Shown: piece by piece, positions 27,603 to 54,985 of the stretch
Numbering within the stretch: position 1 is the stretch's first letter
Layout of the letters: every line of letters begins with the position of its first letter
NCBI GenBank assembly: GCA_051868045.1
Contig: JBJDZN010000041.1
Span: 13,087 to 77,086, forward strand
Direction of reading: 5' to 3'
Origin: Eubacteriales bacterium
Lineage (GTDB): Bacteria > Bacillota > Clostridia > Oscillospirales > CAG-272
Length of the DNA stretch: 64,000 nt
Program-made: the position numbers and the translations under genes
The notes under the pieces: generated by a model
The model's database searches: none
The model's input: only the letters and a program-made list of their open reading frames with translations
Told to the model about the DNA's origin: nothing

Positions 27603-27809
27603 TTTTCATTCCATCCTTTCAAACTTAAAACCATTCTCGACAAAACGGGTTCCTTTCATTCCGTTCTGCCGAATTATGCAATAAAAAAGGCGCAGACATC
27701 CAGGTCTTATGCGGCATATGCCGCAATCAACTGCCCAGACGGTCGGCGCATACAGATCATATTCCCCCGTGGTTCACCACAAATCCGTCAGTCATATGAT
27801 CCTGATAAC

Positions 27810-40041: not shown

Positions 40042-40156
40042 CGAAATGCCCTCTCAATCCCAAGAATTTACGATTTCCCTTTATTTTAGCATATTTTCGT
40101 CGGATTGTCAAGACAGCCGCAACATCTTTTCAGGGCGAAAAAACGCCGCCAACGGC

Positions 40157-40185
40157 TTGACAAATTCTTCCGGATTAGGTATAAT
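40157..40185 (+). promoter_or_regulatory. sigma-70-like promoter candidate
   Basis: TTGACA at 40157-40162, 17-nt spacer, TATAAT at 40180-40185. Confidence 0.5.
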
Positions 40186-40248
40186 AGATTCAGATGTCAG
40201 AAGTCGTTCAGGAAAACGCCAAAATCAGAATTACCAAGGAGGACAACC

Positions 40249-41517
40249 ATGAAAGTCCAAAACATCCTCTCCCTTCTTTTATCCCTGACCCTCTCCCTGC
40301 CCCTGCTCGCCGGATGCAATACAGAGACACCGGCAAACAGCAGTGACACCGGCACGGATGTCGGCATTGGCACCGGAACGGATACCGCCACCGGTATTCC
40401 CACGGACACCTTCAGCACCACCGTCTCTGCCACCATCCCATCGGAATCGCCAACCGAACCGGAGGTACCCGGGAACCAGTGGAAGACCGTCTGTGCCGGA
40501 CAATCCTGCTATGCCGCCATTACCGGGGACGGCTCCCTCTATATGTGGGGCATAAATACCAACGGGCAACTGGGCAACGGTACGAAGGAGGACAGTCCTG
40601 TTCCCGTCAAAATCATGGACAATGTGCAATCGGTCAGTCTGGGCAGTATGCACAGTGCCGCCGTTACCGAAAGCGGAGATCTCTACCTATGGGGAAGCAA
40701 CATCTACGGACAACTGGGGACCGTTGAAAATAAATCCAGCTTAACGCCGATCAGGATTATGAGAAACGTAGCCTCCGTCTGCCTCTCAGAGACCCGCAGT
40801 GCCGCCATCACCACCGACGGTGAACTCTATCTGTGGGGGAAGAACCCCAACGGAGAGATCGGAACCGGTACAGCAGAGGACAGTCCCGTTCCCGTCAAAA
40901 TCATGGACAACGTACAATCGGTCAGCCTTGGCTACATGCACACTGCGGCGATCACCACCGACGGCTCGCTTTATCTGTGGGGTGACAACGCCGAAGGGGA
41001 ACTCGGAACCGGGAACCGGAAGTCCAGTATGACGCCGGTCAAGGTCATGGACAACGTGCAATCGGTCAGCCTCGGTTTTTTGCACAGTGCGGCGATCACC
41101 AAGGACGGCAAACTCTATCTGTGGGGAAGCAACTGCGCCGGACAGATCGGATGCGGGCTCAGCGAGGATCCGACTGAAGCCTTCCTGTCCCCTGTCAAAA
41201 TCATGGACAATGTGCAATCGGTCAGCACCGGCTTCGATTTCACTGCCGCCGTCACGAAAAGCGGCATCCTCTACCTATGGGGATGGAACAAATACGGTCA
41301 GTTGGGCAACGGAAAAACGGCAGACAGCGGTACGCCTGTCAAAATCATGAGCAAGGTTGCCTCTGTCAGTCTCTGCAATTTAAACAGTGCCGCCATCACC
41401 ACCGACGGTGAGCTCTACCTTTGGGGGTTGAACAGCCACGGACAGTTGGGCGACGGCACAACGGAGAACAGCTCTACCCCCGTCAAACTCGCTCCCCCCG
41501 AATCGGGCGAAGACTGA
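40249..41517 (+). CDS. RCC1/BLIP-II repeat lipoprotein (seven-bladed propeller)
   Basis: AAGGAGGA RBS and lipobox LLAGCN. Seven repeats of the YLWGxNxxGQLGxG...PVKIMDNVQSVS type. Confidence 0.85.
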   Translation: MKVQNILSLLLSLTLSLPLLAGCNTETPANSSDTGTDVGIGTGTDTATGIPTDTFSTTVSATIPSESPTEPEVPGNQWKTVCAGQSCYAAITGDGSLYMWGINTNGQLGNGTKEDSPVPVKIMDNVQSVSLGSMHSAAVTESGDLYLWGSNIYGQLGTVENKSSLTPIRIMRNVASVCLSETRSAAITTDGELYLWGKNPNGEIGTGTAEDSPVPVKIMDNVQSVSLGYMHTAAITTDGSLYLWGDNAEGELGTGNRKSSMTPVKVMDNVQSVSLGFLHSAAITKDGKLYLWGSNCAGQIGCGLSEDPTEAFLSPVKIMDNVQSVSTGFDFTAAVTKSGILYLWGWNKYGQLGNGKTADSGTPVKIMSKVASVSLCNLNSAAITTDGELYLWGLNSHGQLGDGTTENSSTPVKLAPPESGED

Positions 41518-45358: not shown

Positions 45359-45512
45359 GCACAGGCGGCAGATGCTCCCCGCCGACAAAGGGAGTCTCCT
45401 CCCAAAGATTTGACCCTTTGGGGTAAAAACCTCCGTCCACCTGCAAACCTCCCTCAAAAAGGGCGGCAATATTCCCATTTATCATCAAACCCATCTTCAG
45501 AAAACAACCTTT

Positions 45513-45557
45513 GAGGCTGCAGCAAAAACGACAATTTTTGCTGCAGCCTCATTTTTG
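45513..45557. terminator. strong bidirectional terminator between the kinase gene and the transglutaminase cluster
   Basis: GAGGCTGCAGCAAAAA cgacaa TTTTTGCTGCAGCCTC followed by ATTTTTG. Confidence 0.8.
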
Positions 45558-45583: not shown

Positions 45584-48500
45584 TTATCGGTGCTTCTTAC
45601 GGTTCCGTTTTCTCAGAATCCCCGCCGCAAGCAGCGACGCACCGATCAGGACGCCCAGCGACACCCACAGGATGACGGGAACCGGATGCTCGGTCTTTTC
45701 CGTCACTCTGATGGGATACGGATAGGATGCCGCCTCGTATTCGGGTACGCCATCCCCGTTAAGGTCCCACGGGTCGCAGTTCATGACCAGAATCGCAGAC
45801 CCCGTCCGGATTCCGTAAAGGCGGCTGCCCTCCAGCCGAACGGTTCCGTTTGCGTCACTGAGCCGATAGCTTGCCGGAAATGCCGCAATCCCATCCGACC
45901 ATGCCACATCGGTCAGTTCCAGTTTTCCGTCAACCGGGACGGTCAGCGTCCGTCTGGCAAGGGGAAGGGGAGCAGGTGTGACGGTCAGTATGCCCGAATA
46001 AACGGTGAGGCTGTACAGCCGGGTCACATCCTTGCCCTGGGCATCCAGCACAACCAGACTGCCGCAGACGTTTTCCGTGCTTCCCGCATAAAGCTGATAG
46101 CTGCCCGACTTTATCACAATCTGATCTCCCTCCCTGAGGGCTCCCGACAGCAGTCGGAAATCCTGACAGGTCAGGGGCGTTCCGTCGTATCCGGCACTTG
46201 CATCCCCCATGGTGAGGCTGACGGCAATATATTCGTTTCCGTCGGGTCCCGTCACCAGAATCGGCTCAAATATGCCTGCATTCTCAACCTCGCCGGCAGA
46301 AAGGGCTTCGTCGCCGTTTTTGTCCACTACCGTGACGCTGGGGAAGGACTCGATTTCAAGTCTGAGGGTTGCCTTTCCCTCCGGAATGGTGTCCTCGTCA
46401 ACGTCAAACTCGTAGAGGATGCTTCCCTTTGATGCCATAAAGGTGTGAATCCGTTCGGGGTCTTCACTGTCAGGCTTTGCTCCCGTACAGTTGATACGGA
46501 CGATGGGCGTTACGCCAAACAGAACCTCCGGCATGTCTTCGGTCATCAGCTCCGAAATCGCCGGCAGCGTCAGGTCCGTCCCAAGATACACCTTGACCTC
46601 ATCGGGATTTATCTTGATCTCAATGGGATTCACCGTCAGCGTTCCGTCCAGGACGATCAGGTCGTACTCGTCGGTCACATCTCTGCCGGAACTGTCGTGA
46701 ATTTCAAGAATTTCGAAGTAAGAGGAAGAACATCCGGCGAAAAGCTGACTTCCGCCGACTTTTGCTATGATATAGTCGCCCTCCCGAAGGGATCCGGTAA
46801 GAATCTCATAGCCATCTGCAATCAGGGGCGAGCCGTCATAGTCCTTCTCCCCGGAATTCGGTACCACAACCAGAGCATCGCCCTGCGTAATATAGCCGTC
46901 TCCGGTGACTTCCACGGGAATCCAACCGAAGCTGTCCAGATAGATTTCCACCCATGCGTGAGCATTCAGGGCATTGAAGGCGGTCATCCTGCCGCCCTCG
47001 GCATCCACCATGAAGCCTCCCACCAAGCGGGCGGGAATCCCCAGCGTCCGATACATCAGCACCGCCGCCGAGGCGAAATGGATGCAGACCCCCTCCCGAC
47101 TCTCAGTCAGGAAGTAGATCACGGGATCCACCCCGTCCGGGCAGGACTCGTAGAACAGATTGTAGGATGCGCAGCCACGGATATAGTCACGGACTGCCGG
47201 AATCATGGCAGCCGGATCGGTGTCCTCTGCGAGCTTATACCGGGAGGCAAGTGTCAGCATTTCTGCCCGTATATCGTCGGGAACCGTCAGATAGTTGGCG
47301 TAGACGTAATATTTTTGGTAGTAAGCATCATCCAGCAACACGGAGCCGTCCTGCCGGCACGCCAGAATATCCTCCAGATCGTCTTGAGGCAGGAAGTTCA
47401 CCGAATACCCGACCGCCACATCGTGACTCCAGGGCATATTGCAGTCGTTGGGATAGTCCAAATCAACACCAAGACCGGGAAGAAGGTCGTAGCCGGGATT
47501 GGTGTAAAGTGTGATCGTCCCGGGCAGCACGGGATAATTGTAACTGTTTTTCAGAATATATCCGGCACTTTCCAGAGCACTAAGCTCCGGCATTCCCGGT
47601 ATCAGGTTTTCGGTACACAAATCCGGCATTCCCCATCTGCCGCCGCCCAGATAATCGCCGAAGCTGGTCATACGCAGGTAGTAGGAGCCGCTCTGTTCTG
47701 CCACCAGATTGCCCAGAGGTCCCAGATAGTCGGGAAGTCCGGAGTTCATGGGAATGTCGCCCGACAGATCGCCCAGCCCCGAAATCTGATCCAGTGAGGG
47801 AATTCCCTCGGGCAGAGTGATCGGCAGGTCTCCCGGGTCAGTACCCGGTATGGTACCCGGTGTGGTACCGGGTGTGGTACCCGGTGTGGTACCGGGTGTG
47901 GTCTCAGGAGGAACGTAGTCCGATTCCTTGACGGTCAGGGTTCCGTTTACATAGGTGATGGCGTAATTGGTCGTCACCGCCTCGCCACTCGGGAGATACA
48001 GTCCGAAGGACACCACATTGACCCGGCTGCCCACCTGGGTCTGCTTGGCATAAGACAGTGCCGTGAGAGCGGTATGGGGATCTGCCAGCGTCCCCTCCAG
48101 CAGGACATATCCGGTGGAATACAGGGGCGTTCCGTCGTAGAATTTCTCCGCCGTATCGGTTTGCAGGGTGATCTCCCGTCTCTTCACGGTCAGTTTGCCG
48201 TAGGTTGCCGTGATCTGATAGTTTGCCGTCACATCCTGACCGTCCGGGTCGAGGATGGTGCAGACAAAACTGTTGTCCGCACTGCCGGCATTGGTCAGCT
48301 GACGGAATACCGGCTTCAGCGTGTCCCCCTTAAGCAGGGTTCCGCCTGTCTGGGTATAGTTCTCGCAAACAAGGGGAGTCCCGTCGTACACCTTTTCGGC
48401 AGAGCCGGTGGTAAAGGACAGCTCGATGGGGGTCACTTTCAGTACGCCGCTGGTCTGAACAATCTCATAGCAGGAACTGACATCCATGCCATTGCTGTCC

Positions 48501-49549
48501 TGAACGGAAAAACGGAGAAGATTGGAGACGGTTCCCACATTCACAATGGAGGTGACCCCTTCAATGACCAGCCGATGTCCGTACAGCAGACTGCCGCCCA
48601 AAAGGTCATAGCCCATTTCCGACAGGGCATAGCGGTCGTATTGCTTGGTCGCCGAATGGGTTTGGATTGTCAGCCGTCTTGGCTCCACGGTCAGCGTGCC
48701 GTCCTGAAGGATCAGATCGTACGTTTCGGTCACATCGTTGCCGTCGGAATCGTAGATTCTGCCGGTAATGCTGTTGACGGCAACGCCCGGTTCGGTGATC
48801 ATGCCCTCCACGGTCACGTCCAGACGGTCGCCCTCCCGAAGGGTGCCGGATTCAAGGGTCCATTGGGGATTCTGCAAAAAATTTCCGTCGTAGACCTTGC
48901 TCGCACTTGAAGCCACTACCGTCAGCTTCCGTTTGATCACCGTCAGATAGCCCGACTCCACCGTCAGATTGTAGCAATCGGTCACGTCGGCACCGTTTTG
49001 GTTGACAATACGGAAATTGAGGATCTCCACCGACCGGCTGGTCTGAAGTTCCCCCGTAACCGAAAGTTCCACCCCGTCCAGACGGTCGCCGTCTGCCAGA
49101 TTGGACACGCGGATCCGACTTTCCAGTTCCGATGCCCGGGTGCCGTAATAAAGGGTGGTATCGGGAAAGGTGATCTTGGCATTCCGTCGGCTGATTTCAA
49201 AACTGCTGCCCACCTGCCGCACCGTTCCGAAGGGATTGCGGGTCTCGGCGATCATCTCATAGGAACCGATCTTTTCGGGATAGTCATCCGACCAGTCGTC
49301 ACTGCCCGTTTCGGCAAAACGGTAGTCCGGGAATGCCAGAAAGGCAGTGGCTCCGTAGCTCGGAGTGTCTCCGTATACGGCATTTTCACTGTATGCTCCG
49401 CCGAAAAAGGTACCGGAGTAGAAAAGCAGTACCAGAATTGCCGCCAAAAGCACCAGTGCAAGGATGACGAACACCGGCTTGTGCCGCTTGACGAAGTCGA
49501 TCCGACGGGCAATCTTCCGCATTTTTTCCACATACGCATCATAGGTCAT
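45584..49549 (-). CDS. 1321-aa envelope protein: N-terminal TM, MBG(YDG)-type repeats, PT linker, transglutaminase-like Cys-protease core, more MBG repeats, C-terminal TM
   Basis: TM PVFVILALVLLAAILVLLFY. Repeats of the KVYDGTPL...G.L..GD...DVT.NY.I....G.L.V type. Core EGVCIHFASAAVLMYRTLGIPARLVGGF...NAHAWVEIYLDSFGWIPVEVTG. C-terminal VPVILWVSLGVLIGASLLAAGILRKRNRKKHR. Confidence 0.85.
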   Translation of the reverse strand: MTYDAYVEKMRKIARRIDFVKRHKPVFVILALVLLAAILVLLFYSGTFFGGAYSENAVYGDTPSYGATAFLAFPDYRFAETGSDDWSDDYPEKIGSYEMIAETRNPFGTVRQVGSSFEISRRNAKITFPDTTLYYGTRASELESRIRVSNLADGDRLDGVELSVTGELQTSRSVEILNFRIVNQNGADVTDCYNLTVESGYLTVIKRKLTVVASSASKVYDGNFLQNPQWTLESGTLREGDRLDVTVEGMITEPGVAVNSITGRIYDSDGNDVTETYDLILQDGTLTVEPRRLTIQTHSATKQYDRYALSEMGYDLLGGSLLYGHRLVIEGVTSIVNVGTVSNLLRFSVQDSNGMDVSSCYEIVQTSGVLKVTPIELSFTTGSAEKVYDGTPLVCENYTQTGGTLLKGDTLKPVFRQLTNAGSADNSFVCTILDPDGQDVTANYQITATYGKLTVKRREITLQTDTAEKFYDGTPLYSTGYVLLEGTLADPHTALTALSYAKQTQVGSRVNVVSFGLYLPSGEAVTTNYAITYVNGTLTVKESDYVPPETTPGTTPGTTPGTTPGTIPGTDPGDLPITLPEGIPSLDQISGLGDLSGDIPMNSGLPDYLGPLGNLVAEQSGSYYLRMTSFGDYLGGGRWGMPDLCTENLIPGMPELSALESAGYILKNSYNYPVLPGTITLYTNPGYDLLPGLGVDLDYPNDCNMPWSHDVAVGYSVNFLPQDDLEDILACRQDGSVLLDDAYYQKYYVYANYLTVPDDIRAEMLTLASRYKLAEDTDPAAMIPAVRDYIRGCASYNLFYESCPDGVDPVIYFLTESREGVCIHFASAAVLMYRTLGIPARLVGGFMVDAEGGRMTAFNALNAHAWVEIYLDSFGWIPVEVTGDGYITQGDALVVVPNSGEKDYDGSPLIADGYEILTGSLREGDYIIAKVGGSQLFAGCSSSYFEILEIHDSSGRDVTDEYDLIVLDGTLTVNPIEIKINPDEVKVYLGTDLTLPAISELMTEDMPEVLFGVTPIVRINCTGAKPDSEDPERIHTFMASKGSILYEFDVDEDTIPEGKATLRLEIESFPSVTVVDKNGDEALSAGEVENAGIFEPILVTGPDGNEYIAVSLTMGDASAGYDGTPLTCQDFRLLSGALREGDQIVIKSGSYQLYAGSTENVCGSLVVLDAQGKDVTRLYSLTVYSGILTVTPAPLPLARRTLTVPVDGKLELTDVAWSDGIAAFPASYRLSDANGTVRLEGSRLYGIRTGSAILVMNCDPWDLNGDGVPEYEAASYPYPIRVTEKTEHPVPVILWVSLGVLIGASLLAAGILRKRNRKKHR
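47840..47903. repeat. about five tandem 12-nt units (GGTACCNGGTGT) encoding (TPGT)n
   Basis: Read directly from the sequence. It corresponds to ETTPGTTPGTTPGTTPGTIPGTDPG in the 1321-aa protein. Confidence 0.9.
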
Positions 49550-49598
49550 GTTCTGTTACCGATTCCTTTCCCGATTTTTTGTGATTTGCGGTGTCCGT

Positions 49599-50198
49599 TC
49601 ATTCCTGATCCGAAGCGGACACCATATAGTCTTCCAGATTTTTGACGATGTAGGTTCCGCCGGTTCTTCCGACATCATCTTCCCATTTGATAACGAACAT
49701 CAGGCTGTCGCCGCCCTGAAGGGTCATCTCACCGGGCAGATCCAGATAGCTTTCCTCTTCCCAATCATCGTCCGAACCGTCCTCGGCGGCAAGATAGACG
49801 GTATTTACCGAACGGGTCCCATTGTACTGGGTACAGCTGAGATCGGTGATCCGCAGCTTGCCCGACCCCCGCTTGTAGATTCGAAGGGTATAGCTGACAT
49901 AGCCGTCCCCGCCGTCTGAGGAGGTATACACCTGAAGGTCAAGACAGCGAAGCTCAAAGGAGCTGCTCGTGGTGCTTGTCTCTTCAATTGCGGGCTTGGG
50001 ACGGCTGCTGATCCCTTCGGTATTGACGCTGTACACGGGACTCTGATCGGGAACCGACGGGTCGTCCCAAAACAGTCCGAATACCGCCAGTGTCAGCAGC
50101 AGAATCAGCACCAATGCCAGACTGACGATAGCTGTGGCAAGGATGCGGATTCCGCCGTCCCGGATCACGGTTTTCTTTCTTGGATTTTGTATTTTCAT
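49599..50198 (-). CDS. small bitopic membrane protein with an acidic extracytoplasmic beta-rich domain (no family recognised)
   Basis: MKIQNPRKKTVIRDGG, then TM IRILATAIVSLALVLILLLTLAVFGLF. Its ATG and RBS lie inside the duplicated segment. It ends 49 nt upstream of the transglutaminase gene. Confidence 0.7.
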   Translation of the reverse strand: MKIQNPRKKTVIRDGGIRILATAIVSLALVLILLLTLAVFGLFWDDPSVPDQSPVYSVNTEGISSRPKPAIEETSTTSSSFELRCLDLQVYTSSDGGDGYVSYTLRIYKRGSGKLRITDLSCTQYNGTRSVNTVYLAAEDGSDDDWEEESYLDLPGEMTLQGGDSLMFVIKWEDDVGRTGGTYIVKNLEDYMVSASDQE

Positions 50199-51345
50199 CT
50201 GTTATCCTGCCTTTCGGGAAGGTTGCCCGACTTCTGTGTCGGTCGATTTTTCAATGGAGGAATTTGCCAAGGGTGCGTCTGCACAGGGGAAGTCCGTCCT
50301 CCCCGAAGAGGTTGTCCAGACAATCCTCCAGCCCCTTTGCCTCGGTGCGCACATAAACCGGATTCTGATTTTCCAGCTTCCGCAGTACCTTCCGGGCGAT
50401 GATCTGATCCACACCGTCCATCTCCCTGCCTCCGCAGGCGAGATAAACCGGGATAAAGCCCTCGATCTGGCTCATAATCCGGTTCCCGAAGGTGATGCCC
50501 AGATGTCCGATCAGATAGGCATCCAGTGCCTCGATCTTCTCCCGCACCTCTTCGCTGAGCCGATATTTCACCCTTGCCTCACGGAACAGCCTGTCCAGCT
50601 GATTTCCCGTCAGACTCACGCCCTCGGCACTCCCGGAGGCGGAAAAGGGCTTCGCCCGGCGATCCAGATCCAGCACCATGGCACGGTCGTAGACCTTGTC
50701 CGAGATGGCGAGGGTCGAATCGTCGTTGTTTGCCGTTCCCACGAACCAGACCGTGTCGGGAATGTGGAGCTTGCCGTTCTTCAGCCGTTTGGGATCGTCC
50801 GAACGGCTGTCGGACACGATCTCAACGGTGCGGCTCTGACTGTCGGGTAGTTCCAGAACCGACAGAAATTCGGCAAAATAATATTCCACACGGGCGATGT
50901 TCATCTCGTCCAGCACGGCGACATAGACTCTGTCGTTGGTTCCCGCCTCGTACAGCTTCTGGAGCAGTTCGGTCTCATGGAAGGTGCCGGTGAACTCGTT
51001 GAAATAGCCCAGCAGATCGGTTCTGTCCTTCCAGGAAGGCTGAACGGGAACCATCACGGCATCGTTGCCCATGAATTTTCCGAAGGCATACGCCAGCGAG
51101 GTTTTTCCGGTGCCGGAAATGCCCTGCATAATGATCAGCTTGGTCACCGACATCCCGGCGACGAAGGATCGGATCACGTCGGCATCGTAGTACAGTCCCA
51201 TCTGTCCGGCGGCGAAATTCCGGAAACGGGTGCAAAGCTCGGACAGGGTCAGATTGGGGTCCCCCTTGGGGGTCTGCACCGTCTGACGGTCGGTCTGACA
51301 CAGCCGATAAAACCGGGGTTCCTCTTCCGCCCCCTTGGCGGAACC
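50195..51345. repeat. direct repeat copy A (1151 bp) covering the AAA+ core, stop codon, 52-nt spacer, RBS and ATG of the next gene
   Basis: It aligns to 53264-54414 at a constant offset of 3069. By eye there are no mismatches over 50195-51177 and about eight mismatches in 51178-51345. Confidence 0.9.
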
Positions 51346-51708
51346 TTTCCACGACAGATTTTTTCGGGAGGACGTCCGAAAGCGGAGGGCGATCAGGAAG
51401 AGAATCAGAAGAATGAAGAGAATCAGAAAGCCCAATGCCAGAATCAGCACGATGGATTTGGGAAGTGAGAGCAGCTGGCTCCATCCCTCGCTGTCCTCCT
51501 CGGTGGTATGAACCGTCAGCGAGAGAATCAGCAGAATCCCCAAAATCAGCACGGGAATCAAAAACCATGCCGCAAGGGAGGGTCGGTTGTCCTTTTTATC
51601 TTTTTTCATATGGGTTGTCAATGCCTTTCTCCAATCCGTTGGAATAATATCGTTCGAATAGGTTATTTCCGACAATAATTGGGGGGATTTCACAAAAGGG
51701 AGTCGCAT
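50251..51708 (-). CDS. membrane-anchored McrB-family AAA+ GTPase, paralog 2 (two predicted TM helices)
   Basis: Walker A GISGTGKTS. VQPSWKDRTDLLGYF. Walker B-plus VAVLDEMNIARVEYYFAEFLSVLE. VWFVGTANNDDST (NxxD). TM helices AAWFLIPVLILGILLILSL and IVLILALGFLILFILLILFLIAL. Start is ATG 51708 (preferred, see findings) or ATG 51609; the GTG at 51810 is rejected. Confidence 0.8.
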   Translation of the reverse strand: MRLPFVKSPQLLSEITYSNDIIPTDWRKALTTHMKKDKKDNRPSLAAWFLIPVLILGILLILSLTVHTTEEDSEGWSQLLSLPKSIVLILALGFLILFILLILFLIALRFRTSSRKNLSWKGSAKGAEEEPRFYRLCQTDRQTVQTPKGDPNLTLSELCTRFRNFAAGQMGLYYDADVIRSFVAGMSVTKLIIMQGISGTGKTSLAYAFGKFMGNDAVMVPVQPSWKDRTDLLGYFNEFTGTFHETELLQKLYEAGTNDRVYVAVLDEMNIARVEYYFAEFLSVLELPDSQSRTVEIVSDSRSDDPKRLKNGKLHIPDTVWFVGTANNDDSTLAISDKVYDRAMVLDLDRRAKPFSASGSAEGVSLTGNQLDRLFREARVKYRLSEEVREKIEALDAYLIGHLGITFGNRIMSQIEGFIPVYLACGGREMDGVDQIIARKVLRKLENQNPVYVRTEAKGLEDCLDNLFGEDGLPLCRRTLGKFLH

Positions 51709-51722
51709 ACCTGATTTCCGAT

Positions 51723-53267
51723 TCAGCCCTGTCCGTCCCCGTTTTCTGCCGTTTTCTTGCCCTTTTTGAACAGTTCCTCCTTGCGGATTCGCTGTTTCGC
51801 CAGTCTCCACTGATGCTTGTAGTACTTCTCAAAGGCAAAATACTCCCGCTCCAGTCTCAGAAACCGTTCCCTTGTGGTGTAATCGGTTTCTTCTTCCTTT
51901 TCACCGGCAAGCAGGCGACAGCCTCTGAGCTGTCCGACAAGCAAAGCCCGTTCCTGCTCCCAAACCTCTTCCCTTTCGGAAAGTTCCTTTTCGTGGAGCC
52001 GATCCCGCTCCAACAGTGCCTTTTCCGAGCGGATAACCTCATCGGAAAGCATCTTTTCGCCCTGCTTCATCGCCGCACGGACATCCTGCTCCAGCGAATC
52101 CATCCGCCGAAGCTGCTCCTCTGCGCGGACCTTTGCCTCATCAAGCCGACTCTCTGCCTCTGCATTCTGCCGTTCCGATTCTGTCAGCCGATCGGACAAA
52201 TCCCGATTAGCCAAAAGAACCCTTTCAAGACGGTCTTCCAGCAGTGCAATGTACTCCTTGTCGGACAGCTTCTCCCGTCCTGCCGCAATCTCCTGCCGGA
52301 CCTCCTCATGATACCGAATCTCTTCCTCTTTCAGAAGCTCCTCCAATTGGGGTACCCTGTCGCAAGCCAGATCGGAAAAGACCAGACGTAGCATTTCTCC
52401 GATCTCGCTCAGCATTTCCCGATCCCTTTGGGGCAGTTCCTTTCTGCTCTCCTCCCGACTTTCTACCCGATAGCCGGTGCCCCGGTAGGCATGAAGATAG
52501 GAGTACAGCTCGTATGCCGCCGCAAAATGGCGGTTGCTCCGCAGAACGTTGGTCTGAACCACCGGAGGACGAAGCAGAGGGGCTTTCGCCACCTCTTGCA
52601 TCAGATCGGTGGCAAGCAGGGTTTCGATCTGGGCAAGAATTTCGGACAGGCGTTTGGTAGGCGATGTCGGATCGGTTCCCCGTGCGGTACGGGTATCGGT
52701 CATCCGATTCTGCCAGAGAAGTTCGCTGTCCCGGTCGCTGACCCCCATGCTGCTGCACAGTTCCAGCATCCTGCCCTCGCTGACTCCTGCCATTTCACGG
52801 TATTTCAGGGAAACAAAGTCCTTGATGTAAAGAAACAGGGCGTAAAGAAAGCGATTTTCATAGACGGCGTAGTTTTCGGAATTTTCAATGATGTAGATCT
52901 CCTCGGGAACCAGACGTTCCTCGTCATCGGGATGGGGTTTGAGCAGTTCCGAGTGACCCGCCAGATGGCGCACCGATTCCTTGGTGGGATGCTTGGCGCG
53001 GTCAATGCGTACCACGTCCCCCTCCTTATTGATCTGACTGCGCTGCTGCTCCACCGCTTTAACCAGATGGGGCATGGCGTTCTCGATCTGCTCGATCCAG
53101 TCGTCGCACAGCTCGCACTGCTGACTGCGGAAGGTCAGTTCAAAGGGGGTCTCGCCGACCTCGGTAAACGCCGGTTTTCCCTTGCTCCGCTCCCTGCAAA
53201 GGCTTCGGAGAACCCGATAATATTTCAGATCACGGGAGTTATCATTTTTTTCGTTTGTTAGGCTCAT
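51723..53267 (-). CDS. McrC-like N-terminal region fused to a long coiled coil; no nuclease motif seen
   Basis: The ENYAVYENRFLYALFLYIKDF block resembles the YENRF signature of McrC/DUF2357 N-domains (from memory). Residues ~290-470 are heptad-like and E/R/L/K-rich. I find no PD-(D/E)xK or HNH pattern. Confidence 0.7.
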   Translation of the reverse strand: MSLTNEKNDNSRDLKYYRVLRSLCRERSKGKPAFTEVGETPFELTFRSQQCELCDDWIEQIENAMPHLVKAVEQQRSQINKEGDVVRIDRAKHPTKESVRHLAGHSELLKPHPDDEERLVPEEIYIIENSENYAVYENRFLYALFLYIKDFVSLKYREMAGVSEGRMLELCSSMGVSDRDSELLWQNRMTDTRTARGTDPTSPTKRLSEILAQIETLLATDLMQEVAKAPLLRPPVVQTNVLRSNRHFAAAYELYSYLHAYRGTGYRVESREESRKELPQRDREMLSEIGEMLRLVFSDLACDRVPQLEELLKEEEIRYHEEVRQEIAAGREKLSDKEYIALLEDRLERVLLANRDLSDRLTESERQNAEAESRLDEAKVRAEEQLRRMDSLEQDVRAAMKQGEKMLSDEVIRSEKALLERDRLHEKELSEREEVWEQERALLVGQLRGCRLLAGEKEEETDYTTRERFLRLEREYFAFEKYYKHQWRLAKQRIRKEELFKKGKKTAENGDGQG

Positions 53268-54414
53268 CTGTTATCCTGCCTTTCGGGAAGGTTGCCCGAC
53301 TTCTGTGTCGGTCGATTTTTCAATGGAGGAATTTGCCAAGGGTGCGTCTGCACAGGGGAAGTCCGTCCTCCCCGAAGAGGTTGTCCAGACAATCCTCCAG
53401 CCCCTTTGCCTCGGTGCGCACATAAACCGGATTCTGATTTTCCAGCTTCCGCAGTACCTTCCGGGCGATGATCTGATCCACACCGTCCATCTCCCTGCCT
53501 CCGCAGGCGAGATAAACCGGGATAAAGCCCTCGATCTGGCTCATAATCCGGTTCCCGAAGGTGATGCCCAGATGTCCGATCAGATAGGCATCCAGTGCCT
53601 CGATCTTCTCCCGCACCTCTTCGCTGAGCCGATATTTCACCCTTGCCTCACGGAACAGCCTGTCCAGCTGATTTCCCGTCAGACTCACGCCCTCGGCACT
53701 CCCGGAGGCGGAAAAGGGCTTCGCCCGGCGATCCAGATCCAGCACCATGGCACGGTCGTAGACCTTGTCCGAGATGGCGAGGGTCGAATCGTCGTTGTTT
53801 GCCGTTCCCACGAACCAGACCGTGTCGGGAATGTGGAGCTTGCCGTTCTTCAGCCGTTTGGGATCGTCCGAACGGCTGTCGGACACGATCTCAACGGTGC
53901 GGCTCTGACTGTCGGGTAGTTCCAGAACCGACAGAAATTCGGCAAAATAATATTCCACACGGGCGATGTTCATCTCGTCCAGCACGGCGACATAGACTCT
54001 GTCGTTGGTTCCCGCCTCGTACAGCTTCTGGAGCAGTTCGGTCTCATGGAAGGTGCCGGTGAACTCGTTGAAATAGCCCAGCAGATCGGTTCTGTCCTTC
54101 CAGGAAGGCTGAACGGGAACCATCACGGCATCGTTGCCCATGAATTTTCCGAAGGCATACGCCAGCGAGGTTTTTCCGGTGCCGGAAATGCCCTGCATAA
54201 TGATCAGCTTGGTCACCGACATCCCGGCGACGAAGGATCGGATCACATCGGCATCGTAGTACAGTCCCATCTGTCCGGCGGCAAAATTCCGAAAACGGGT
54301 GCAAAGCTCGGACAGGGTCAGATCGGGATCCGCCTTGGGGGTCTGCACCGTCTGACGGTCGGTCTGACACAGCCGATAGAACCGGGGTTCCTCTTCCGCC
54401 CCCTTGGCGGAACC
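53264..54414. repeat. direct repeat copy B (1151 bp)
   Basis: See copy A. Confidence 0.9.
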
Positions 54415-54609
54415 GCCGCTTTTGGCGCCGACCGTCTGCACCTGATGAAACCGCAGGGTCAGGAGGACGACGAAAAGGATCAGCAGGAGAAGAAGGGCGA
54501 TCATGTACAGAAAGACAGCGGTGTGTCCGGTCAGTGCCGACCAGATTCCGGAATTCCGGATACTTTGCAGAAAATCCGAATTGTCAAGGGAAAGAGCGGG
54601 AATAACCAT
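53320..54609 (-). CDS. membrane-anchored McrB-family AAA+ GTPase, paralog 1 (one predicted TM helix)
   Basis: Same AAA+ core as paralog 2, with an identical C-terminal ~325 aa. N-terminal MVIPALSLDNSDFLQSIRNSGIWSALTGHT, then TM AVFLYMIALLLLLILFVVLLTL. AAAGG RBS 9 nt upstream. Confidence 0.85.
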   Translation of the reverse strand: MVIPALSLDNSDFLQSIRNSGIWSALTGHTAVFLYMIALLLLLILFVVLLTLRFHQVQTVGAKSGGSAKGAEEEPRFYRLCQTDRQTVQTPKADPDLTLSELCTRFRNFAAGQMGLYYDADVIRSFVAGMSVTKLIIMQGISGTGKTSLAYAFGKFMGNDAVMVPVQPSWKDRTDLLGYFNEFTGTFHETELLQKLYEAGTNDRVYVAVLDEMNIARVEYYFAEFLSVLELPDSQSRTVEIVSDSRSDDPKRLKNGKLHIPDTVWFVGTANNDDSTLAISDKVYDRAMVLDLDRRAKPFSASGSAEGVSLTGNQLDRLFREARVKYRLSEEVREKIEALDAYLIGHLGITFGNRIMSQIEGFIPVYLACGGREMDGVDQIIARKVLRKLENQNPVYVRTEAKGLEDCLDNLFGEDGLPLCRRTLGKFLH

Positions 54610-54880
54610 ATCGTAAACCTTTCTATAAAAAACGGCATCGAGCCGAGTGCAGGATGCGGGGCGGACCGGCTCCCCGAAACGGGGAGTCGGTCACCCGGAC
54701 TTCTTTTTGCGGGATGGTCACAAGGACAAAAGTCGTGCAGATGGTCGATGCCAAAATTGGATTTGTGGAGGGTGATTTCGGTAGACCCCGTCAAAGGGAC
54801 GGATGCTCTACCTTTTTATTCTATTGAAAAAGAAAAATTCCTTCCGATTTTTAAAATTTTGCAAAGAAATGTTGTCAATT
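54610..54880 (-). promoter_or_regulatory. structured ~250-nt leader / possible small RNA upstream of the AAA+ cluster, with a weak promoter candidate
   Basis: On the minus strand: TTGACA (54878-54873) with only a poor -10 (TTTAAA/TAAAAA), then several GC-rich helices (details in findings) ending in GATGCCGTTTTTT just before the RBS. Confidence 0.3.
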
Positions 54881-54985
54881 CTTGTTGCTACAGGGAATTA
54901 TCCGCTCATGGCTAAGGGGATGAAGGGGAAAACGGCAAAGCCGCAACCCGTCCGCTCAGACAACTGTGCCGAACCGCACGTCGGA

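Follow-up and report, generated by a model that had tools for sequence, protein, structure and literature searches.

We describe here a cluster of five minus-strand genes in a 64,000-nucleotide (nt) stretch of contig JBJDZN010000041.1 from an Eubacteriales bacterium; this whole stretch is referred to below as the window. The cluster combines two membrane-anchored McrB-type GTPases (A1 and A2) and a McrC homolog lacking a nuclease (C) with a small bitopic protein (S) and a giant envelope protein carrying a transglutaminase core (T). McrBC is the textbook GTP-dependent restriction enzyme, and the cluster is most likely neither a restriction nor a defence system. Instead, we favor the interpretation, to which we assign a probability of about 60%, that the five genes form one operon encoding an envelope machine functionally coupled to T, which would either switch or position this enzyme or chaperone its assembly.

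The genes follow each other in the order A1-C-A2-S-T. A1 (54609-53320) encodes a GTPase of 429 amino acids (aa) with one transmembrane (TM) helix, C (53267-51723) a protein of 514 aa, A2 (51708-50251, 485 aa when read from the ATG at 51708) the second GTPase, anchored by a hairpin of two TM helices, S (50198-49599) a 199-aa bitopic protein with a β-sandwich, and T (49549-45584) a 1321-aa envelope protein in which the transglutaminase core is accompanied by MBG repeats. The intergenic gaps are 52 nt (A1-C), 14 or 113 nt (C-A2), 52 nt (A2-S) and 49 nt (S-T). An earlier note, made from this DNA alone, had listed the same open reading frames (ORFs) and gaps and had seen no strong hairpin with a T-run between the genes. 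The ORFs, their coordinates and the gaps were verified from the sequence, and a terminator scan detected no minus-strand hairpin followed by a T-run in any of the four gaps. The note had also placed a bidirectional terminator with a 16-bp stem at 45513-45557. Such an element is indeed present between T and the convergent histidine-kinase gene, albeit with a 17-18-bp stem at 45512-45551 and with a T-run that is clear on the plus strand and weaker on the minus strand. A promoter scan of the cluster returned matches at chance level only. The GC content of the cluster equals that of its flanks, which consist of housekeeping genes (aconitase, ClpB, ProRS and a two-component system).

The assignment of A1 and A2 to the McrB family is supported by database matches and by their motifs. 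They match the McrB family in NCBIfam (E 1e-5), and their best match among solved structures is E. coli McrB (PDB 6HZ4, E 1e-5), with the motifs aligned. All of these motifs are intact: Walker A (GISGTGKTS), Walker B (VLDEMN) and the signature GTANNDD. The N-N-D-D of the signature fits the pattern 'NxD plus a second D', and an ungapped alignment pairs it with NHDE of one coiled-coil McrB, although it can also be read as NxxD when compared with NTAD of E. coli. The GTPase core is 50% identical to the cores of CoCoPALM-type GTPases (discussed below), 38% to a coiled-coil McrB from a Deinococcus plasmid and 23% to E. coli McrB. In place of a DNA-binding domain, for which neither Pfam nor NCBIfam gave a match, the N-termini of A1 and A2 consist of 30-110 aa holding one or two TM helices. 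According to hydropathy, A1 has its helix at residues 32-50 and is predicted to place its N-terminus outside and the AAA+ core in the cytoplasm; the outer end of the helix bears the conserved motif W..(L/I)T(G/S)H.A.F.Y. A2 has helices at 44-62 and 86-104, with the N-terminus and the GTPase core predicted inside and a loop outside, the latter containing the conserved motif GW...L..P. The start of A2 is ambiguous: the ATG at 51708 gives 485 aa and the ATG at 51609 gives 452 aa, and there is also a GTG-extended form starting at 51810. The start at 51609 is favored, since family members begin with MKK directly ahead of the first TM helix. When A1 was searched against phage and plasmid sequences, only core-level matches of 28-40% identity were obtained, and the anchors remained unmatched. 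None of the cluster proteins matched AAA_3 (MoxR), DUF58 or VWA.

Protein C is composed of a DUF2357-type N-domain (approximately residues 55-270), a long coiled coil whose length varies across the family, and a conserved basic aromatic C-terminal helix. Pfam DUF2357 is matched by 16 of 28 members of the C family (best E 2.7e-7), and hhalign relates the family to a DUF2357 protein encoded beside a coiled-coil McrB with a probability of 92% (E 6e-7). The AlphaFold 2 model of C (mean confidence score, pLDDT, 77) features an α/β N-domain followed exclusively by long helices, which account for residues 280-509 and include one helix of 118 residues (336-453). The motifs YENRFL and PP..TN are invariant, as are W487 and I494. 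No nuclease was detected in C with Pfam, NCBIfam or PADLOC; a PDB profile search with the C alignment retrieved coiled-coil proteins only and no nuclease. Hydropathy indicates no TM helix.

The locus contains a direct repeat. Two copies of 1151 bp, at 53264-54414 and 50195-51345, extend from the GTPase core of A1 or A2 through its stop codon and the 52-nt spacer to the ATG of the next gene (C or S, respectively). Because the repeat spans the spacer together with the following start codon, the two 52-nt gaps are equal. The copies are 99.39% identical, and their 7 mismatches all fall within the first 168 nt (in gene orientation), so A1 and A2 differ only in their N-terminal membrane anchors. This repeat had been overlooked in the earlier note, and its treatment of the two GTPases as separate paralogs has to be revised, as their cores are kept 99.4% identical apparently through gene conversion. 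In L001 (related loci are denoted by L and a number), an 80%-identical relative, the two cores are 99.9% identical to each other. When the window is compared with L001, however, core identity drops to 83-84%, and for the unique anchors and C it is 81-88%. Across loci, the identity of A1 and A2 DNA is bimodal: about 20 loci lie at 97.8-100%, three have 88-94% and another 20 or so fall at 69-75%, with both the high and the low state found in either of the two gene layouts described below. This pattern points to homogenization of A1 and A2 cores by recurrent gene conversion, which in turn argues for interchangeable cores and anchor-specific functions. Identical cores on distinct anchors thus constitute a natural experiment and suggest a mixed ring of exchangeable cores.

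The repeat has a practical consequence as well. Many contigs bearing C, from metagenomes as well as isolates, are short (about 2-3.5 kb) and carry GTPase-core fragments at one or both ends (L025, L027, L029, L031-L034, L036-L038, L040, L051-L053, L057, L064-L066, L072-L074, L077, L080, L082, L086 and L093), since assemblies break at the near-identical A1 and A2 cores. The C protein of the window itself is also present on a 1978-bp short-read contig that corresponds to the unique segment between the repeats. The locus is therefore systematically fragmented in short-read metagenome-assembled genomes (MAGs), which should serve as a warning. As a separate observation, both copies of the 52-nt spacer contain small antisense GC-rich hairpins with T-runs (50214-50245 and 53283-53314, plus strand), duplicated within the repeat.

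The two remaining proteins appear to face outward. Predicted to have its N-terminus inside and its C-terminus outside, S begins with a short tail in the cytoplasm, crosses the membrane with one TM helix and continues through a linker into an external β-sandwich of seven strands. Its AlphaFold 2 model, based on a shallow alignment (pLDDT 66), places the TM helix at 15-42 and the strands at 80-187, and Foldseek returned only generic ApaG-like and TRAP-β-like sandwiches. Just 4 close homologs were found among 5.8 billion proteins, and S appears to evolve fast; distant orthologs hold the same position in loci with the layout of the window and share a conserved tail motif, EKARM. T, from the N- to the C-terminus, includes a cytoplasmic tail (MTYDAY..K...KRHK in the window, MTYDEY..K...KKH as the conserved family form), a TM helix, MBG/YDG repeats, a Pro/Thr linker, the transglutaminase core, further repeats, the conserved motif DLNGDG..E, a second TM helix near the C-terminus and a basic tail. 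The TM helices are predicted, from hydropathy and the positive-inside rule, at 26-44 and 1290-1308, with both tails inside and about 1240 aa outside. Pfam recognizes Transglut_core (E 5e-22) and the adhesin-type domains AgI_II_C2, YDG and MBG; an LPXTG motif and the multi-TM domain TgpA_N are both absent. The transglutaminase-like (papain-fold) core (aa 774-880; 46910..47230, minus strand) contains a Cys in EGVCIHFAS, a His in AHAWVE and a Glu in GWIPVEVT, and its best PDB match is P. aeruginosa TgpA (6G49, E 3e-10). Across 43 cores of the family, Cys and His are conserved while the third residue is mostly Glu, sometimes Asp, suggesting that the T enzyme is probably active.

The composition proposed in the earlier note is borne out. 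The intact motifs, McrB matches and TM pattern agree with its TM-anchored McrB-like GTPases, the DUF2357 homology and helical C-terminal half of C with its McrC-like coiled-coil protein, and the domains of T with its giant transglutaminase/MBG protein. Likewise, Pfam, NCBIfam and PADLOC found no DNA-binding, nuclease or HEPN domain in the cluster proteins, in keeping with the note's observation that no DNA-binding domain or nuclease is visible, and neither the 514-aa nor the 199-aa protein was placed by profile or structure searches in a well-characterized unrelated family.

Conservation of the gene neighborhood, on which the same note had made its proposal depend, turned out to be extensive, gene order being kept in dozens of independent genomes. 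A scan of GTDB with one genome per species revealed relatives of C in 374 species genomes; an exact-match search did not find the window sequence in GTDB genomes. The best 80 of these 374 loci were examined, and all belong to Clostridia (among them Oscillospiraceae, Christensenellaceae and various "Eubacteriales"). A search for C homologs gave about 30 full-length relatives of 30-36% identity, from Clostridia MAGs, and the family of the C N-domain comprises 1107 representatives (50% clustering, E <= 1e-3). One C homolog comes from a cultured isolate, Pumilibacter muris CLA-AA-M08 (L086), which offers a possible experimental route. Gene content was surveyed by ORF calling and jackhmmer over 83 non-redundant loci, with counts limited to loci having enough flanking sequence. 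A GTPase gene lies upstream of C in 64 of 66 loci and downstream of it in 71 of 80; a T-family gene follows downstream in all 43 loci, and a transglutaminase core is recognizable in 33 of 37. The order A1-C-A2-S-T is kept in relatives whose C proteins are 33-36% identical and whose flanks are unrelated, and many relatives have 4-nt overlaps or 1-5-nt gaps between the cluster genes. The flanks differ between lineages and are made up of housekeeping genes. The locus is syntenic in the 80%-identical relative.

Two layouts can be distinguished, type I (A1-C-A2-S-T, as in the window) and type II (A0-A1-C-A2-T'-T''). Type II loci contain a tandem of two or three genes for very large transglutaminase/MBG proteins; T' and T'' have one or two transglutaminase cores each, and a locus may contain up to three cores. 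The core of A0 is McrB-like but degenerate, lacking Walker A. It is preceded by a TM hairpin and by a large N-domain of either the GH3_C plus Fn3-like or the zinc-ribbon type, which is predicted from topology to be cytoplasmic. Examples are found in L010 (5118-8495), L062 (4871-8257) and L035 (3131-4885), with similar genes in L041, L069, L075, L078, L084, L085, L088 and L089. A0 may represent a sensor or regulatory subunit.

How does the cluster relate to known systems? The closest counterpart is CoCoPALM. Bell et al. (2024, eLife 13:RP94800; PMC11090510) described the NxD branch of McrB GTPases and named CoCoPALM, deferring its analysis to a later paper. According to that study, CoCoPALM consists of a GTPase fused to an FtsB-like TM helix and a coiled coil, a coiled-coil McrC homolog and genes for S26 signal peptidases. 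We did not find a follow-up analysis of, or experiment on, CoCoPALM in the literature. Three loci (L006, L008 and L009) fit this description and, judging by sequence, represent the nearest outgroup of the window's clade; their GTPase cores are about 50% and their C N-domains about 26% identical to those of the window. In both systems a McrB-type GTPase with the GTANNDD signature, which can be read as NxD, has an N-terminal TM anchor, the McrC homolog retains DUF2357 with a coiled coil in place of the nuclease, and the module is linked to large secreted or surface proteins in Bacillota. There are, however, clear differences. S26 genes are absent from the window and all 80 related loci (in a jackhmmer search with three S26-like queries, only L006-L009 matched), and Pfam likewise found no S26 match among the five window proteins. 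GTPases of the window's clade lack the FtsB-like coiled coil: compared with the GTPases of L006, L008 and L009, A1 and A2 join their TM helices to the core by a short charged linker that contains no coiled coil. Moreover, two (type I) or three (type II) GTPase paralogs flank C instead of one, and the partners are TgpA-like transglutaminase/MBG proteins. We propose to place the cluster, on the basis of these comparisons, as a transglutaminase-linked sister branch of CoCoPALM within the NxD branch of McrB GTPases.

The CoCoPALM-type loci themselves show some further features. There are two S26-like genes per locus, a protein of more than 3200 aa is encoded, and an EAL gene (L006, 6144-6917) or a PilZ gene (L008, 12783-13466) is located beside the GTPase/C module. 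This hints at surface structures regulated by cyclic di-GMP (c-di-GMP).

Comparison with classical McrBC (PDB 6HZ4, 6UT6) reveals a common AAA+ GTPase core with Walker A, Walker B and the Asn-Asp signature, and a McrC-lineage partner encoded directly downstream. In the cluster, by contrast, TM helices replace the DNA-binding N-domain, a coiled coil replaces the PD-(D/E)xK nuclease and envelope partners take the place of DNA targets. CoCoNuT systems (Bell et al. 2024) have a GTPase with a fused coiled coil and, in tandem, genes for HEPN or other nucleases; A1 and A2 have no coiled coil, and neither HEPN nor nuclease domains are present in the cluster and its flanks. An analogy with MoxR-DUF58-transglutaminase (TgpA-like) operons, drawn in the earlier note together with the remark that the motor is of the McrB and not the MoxR type, proved apt on both counts, with TgpA being the best match for the T core. 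Clusters of this kind, with a function likewise unresolved, occur in bifidobacteria (the PFNA cluster, pkb2-fn3-aaa-duf58-tgm) and in mycobacteria (the moxR1 operon) (PMC8430577, PMC12067865). They too carry, in one operon, an AAA+ NTPase with its dedicated partner, a transglutaminase-fold protein anchored in the membrane and located outside, and surface proteins of the Ig/FN3-like kind. T shares with them an outward-facing TgpA-like core, which in T lies between two TM helices with positive-inside tails. On the other hand, the motor of the cluster is McrB-type with a McrC-type partner and is itself membrane-anchored, and T has two TM helices and MBG repeats instead of a multi-TM TgpA_N. The resemblance is thus one of analogy or module replacement, not orthology. 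Recruitment of a McrB-family NTPase to a non-defence envelope function is known from S. aureus PcdA, an AAA+ protein directing division-plane selection (PMC12272431). PcdA, which works with DivIVA and FtsZ, has a degraded nucleotide pocket and no McrC partner, whereas in the cluster the motifs are intact, a McrC homolog is present and the partners are surface proteins. An association of McrB/McrC with a transglutaminase is not mentioned in the text of PMC11090510 or in those of its supplements that were searched, nor elsewhere in the literature searched. Accordingly, the view that no described system could be named for this composition needs qualification: a membrane-anchored, nuclease-less McrBC module has a precedent in CoCoPALM, a sister system already named, but the present composition has not been described previously.

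These features can be combined into a model of how an envelope machine of this kind might work. By analogy with McrB hexamers, A1 and A2 would assemble through their interchangeable AAA+ cores, forming a GTPase ring beneath the membrane. Given its homology, C would plug this ring with its DUF2357 domain and stimulate GTP hydrolysis as McrC does; its coiled coil, taking the place of the nuclease, probably dimerizes or scaffolds the complex, and the basic aromatic helix at its C-terminus might attach to the membrane or to the tails of partners. Conserved motifs on the external side of the A1 and A2 anchors and conserved cytoplasmic tails of S and T are what one would expect if the motor contacts S and T, and they could link these components physically. 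Movement driven by GTP might then switch or position, from the inside out, the external transglutaminase/protease domain of T with its Cys-His-Glu/Asp residues, or else chaperone the assembly of T, and T could subsequently cross-link or process surface or wall proteins. A more specific version, which is contained in the probability given above for the envelope machine and which we put forward only tentatively, is mechanical transmission: a McrBC-derived ring of two differently anchored subunits, their cores kept identical by gene conversion, would be driven by the coiled coil of C as a shaft and use GTP to perform mechanical work on the TM helices of T and thereby switch or position the external transglutaminase/protease. 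If so, monoderm bacteria might possess, in this cluster, a class of transmembrane energy-coupling machine that has not been described before. FtsEX (with PcsB, EnvC, CwlO and RipC) and MacB-type ABC transporters provide the conceptual parallel, as in these systems cytoplasmic NTP hydrolysis controls, through TM segments, an external enzyme with coiled-coil elements. The parallel is confined to the concept: ABC ATPases have no sequence or fold relationship to AAA+ GTPases, and coupling in the cluster is putative.

Several observations weigh against the envelope-machine interpretation or weaken its links. Ring formation, contact between C and the ring, contact between the motor and T, and the activity and substrate of the enzyme are all inferred, and the TM helices and topologies are predictions from hydropathy and the positive-inside rule. 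The nearest characterized relatives of the GTPases belong to defence systems, and the GTPase core matches the PADLOC profile PDC-M26A with an E value of 5e-44. The C protein of the window falls below the Pfam threshold for DUF2357 (E 1.4e-3), hhalign detected no similarity between the C family and E. coli McrC, and Foldseek of the full-length C model against the PDB gave only coiled-coil matches or noise (E > 0.5), the long helix dominating the search and making it uninformative. For C the appropriate comparison is with DUF2357-type proteins, E. coli McrC being a member of another Pfam family. S is absent from type II loci and hence is not a core part. Most members of the T family have Glu as the catalytic acid, where Asp would be canonical. 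Finally, transglutaminase-fold enzymes need no energy input, which leaves the need for a motor unexplained.

Among alternative explanations, one holds that the motor is not a switch for the activity of T but an assembly or export chaperone, or a fiber-assembly factor, spending GTP to insert, fold or polymerize the giant MBG/transglutaminase proteins, which possibly become covalently cross-linked surface fibers. We regard this as rather unlikely. It agrees with the role in pilus assembly suggested by Bell et al. for CoCoPALM (PMC11090510), whose loci combine this module with giant proteins and S26 signal-peptidase-like genes, and with the view that MoxR-family AAA+ proteins beside transglutaminases are chaperones (PMC8430577). 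The adhesin-type domains of T and the tandem giant proteins of type II loci would also fit. However, no threading or unfolding of proteins is known for McrB-type rings, Sec/YidC could deal with the ordinary signal-anchor and stop-transfer helices of T, the cluster has no S26 peptidase, sortase or LPXTG, and type I loci lack a pilin-like small subunit.

Less probable still is an anti-phage or abortive-infection module, in which the external domains of S and T or the anchors would sense infection or envelope damage. The GTPase-C complex would then activate an effector at the membrane or envelope; for instance, the anchors could form pores or the transglutaminase could modify the wall. The earlier note had left the choice between an envelope and a defence function open; the envelope function now has much better support. 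The defence option does draw on the fact that characterized McrB-family members are restriction enzymes, on the strength of the PDC-M26A match and on the closest non-membrane relatives of the GTPase, which are plasmid coiled-coil McrB proteins adjoining DUF2357 genes. We rejected membership in PDC-M26, since the match is common to all NxD GTPases, including CoCoNuT-like and CoCoPALM proteins, and PADLOC has no match for C; the match is thus domain-level, and S and T drew no PADLOC matches either. The domain searches revealed no nuclease, HEPN or other toxin domain (Pfam, NCBIfam, PADLOC). The context is not defence-like, because the flanks are housekeeping genes and not a defence island, the GC content is unchanged, the locus is syntenic in the relative and 2.9 million viral contigs contain no relatives of C. 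Furthermore, linkage to adhesin-like giant proteins is invariable (T-family gene in 43/43 loci). An even more skeptical view, that the GTPase/C module and S/T are mere neighbors without a shared function or that the duplicated core is an assembly artefact, seems to us very improbable. Gaps of 49-113 nt leave room for internal promoters, mis-assembly is classically caused by near-identical repeats such as these 1.15-kb copies, and many MAGs do break at this locus. Yet the same invariable linkage extends across lineages whose flanks differ, and stop and start codons of adjacent genes often overlap. The artefact was rejected because the two copies are distinct, differing in their 5' parts, at 7 positions and in the genes downstream, and because the two-copy layout recurs in independent assemblies, including lineages in which the copies are only about 70% identical.

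The region upstream of A1 deserves separate mention. The untranslated leader (54610..54985, minus strand) extends over 376 nt from the aconitase stop codon to the A1 start codon. It contains a long-range stem, GGCAUCGACC...GGCUCGAUGCC, followed by a U-run just ahead of the ribosome-binding site. The segment 54600-54850 (minus strand) folds with -81.2 kcal/mol (z = -4.0 relative to shuffled controls). The leader is kept in L001 (8401-8657), where its inner hairpin shows compensatory changes (CUCCCC/GGGGAG versus CUUCUC/GAGAAG). Both the fold and these changes substantiate the structured leader that had been suggested as the upstream boundary of the unit. In an nhmmer search against all loci, the leader sequence matched only in the window and L001. 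Rfam gave no match at E<=1, and seven related loci are likewise without a known riboswitch. A c-di-GMP riboswitch, an idea derived from the PilZ and EAL neighbors in CoCoPALM-type loci, was therefore dropped. The leader may represent an unclassified cis-regulatory RNA or an attenuator.

Two other features of the window lie outside the cluster. A ZMP/ZTP riboswitch (RF01750, 59.9 bits, E 3e-7) is present at 27726-27805 (minus strand) upstream of a minus-strand ORF of 743 aa and is unrelated to the cluster. An RCC1-repeat (β-propeller) protein (WD40_RLD, E 1e-136) is encoded at 40105-41517 (plus strand), its gene having internal DNA repeats (40512-41427) that are 71-75% identical.

If the envelope-machine interpretation is true, the McrBC motor, i.e. 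the ring together with its McrC plug, would have been stripped of its DNA-directed parts and rebuilt as a membrane machine in hundreds of species of gut and rumen Clostridia, invariably coupled to TgpA-like transglutaminases of the cell surface. This would provide a handle on why AAA+ NTPases of the MoxR/McrB clade have repeatedly been wired to membrane transglutaminases, as in TgpA and the PFNA cluster, and would bear on how Gram-positive cells power or control reactions beyond their membrane.

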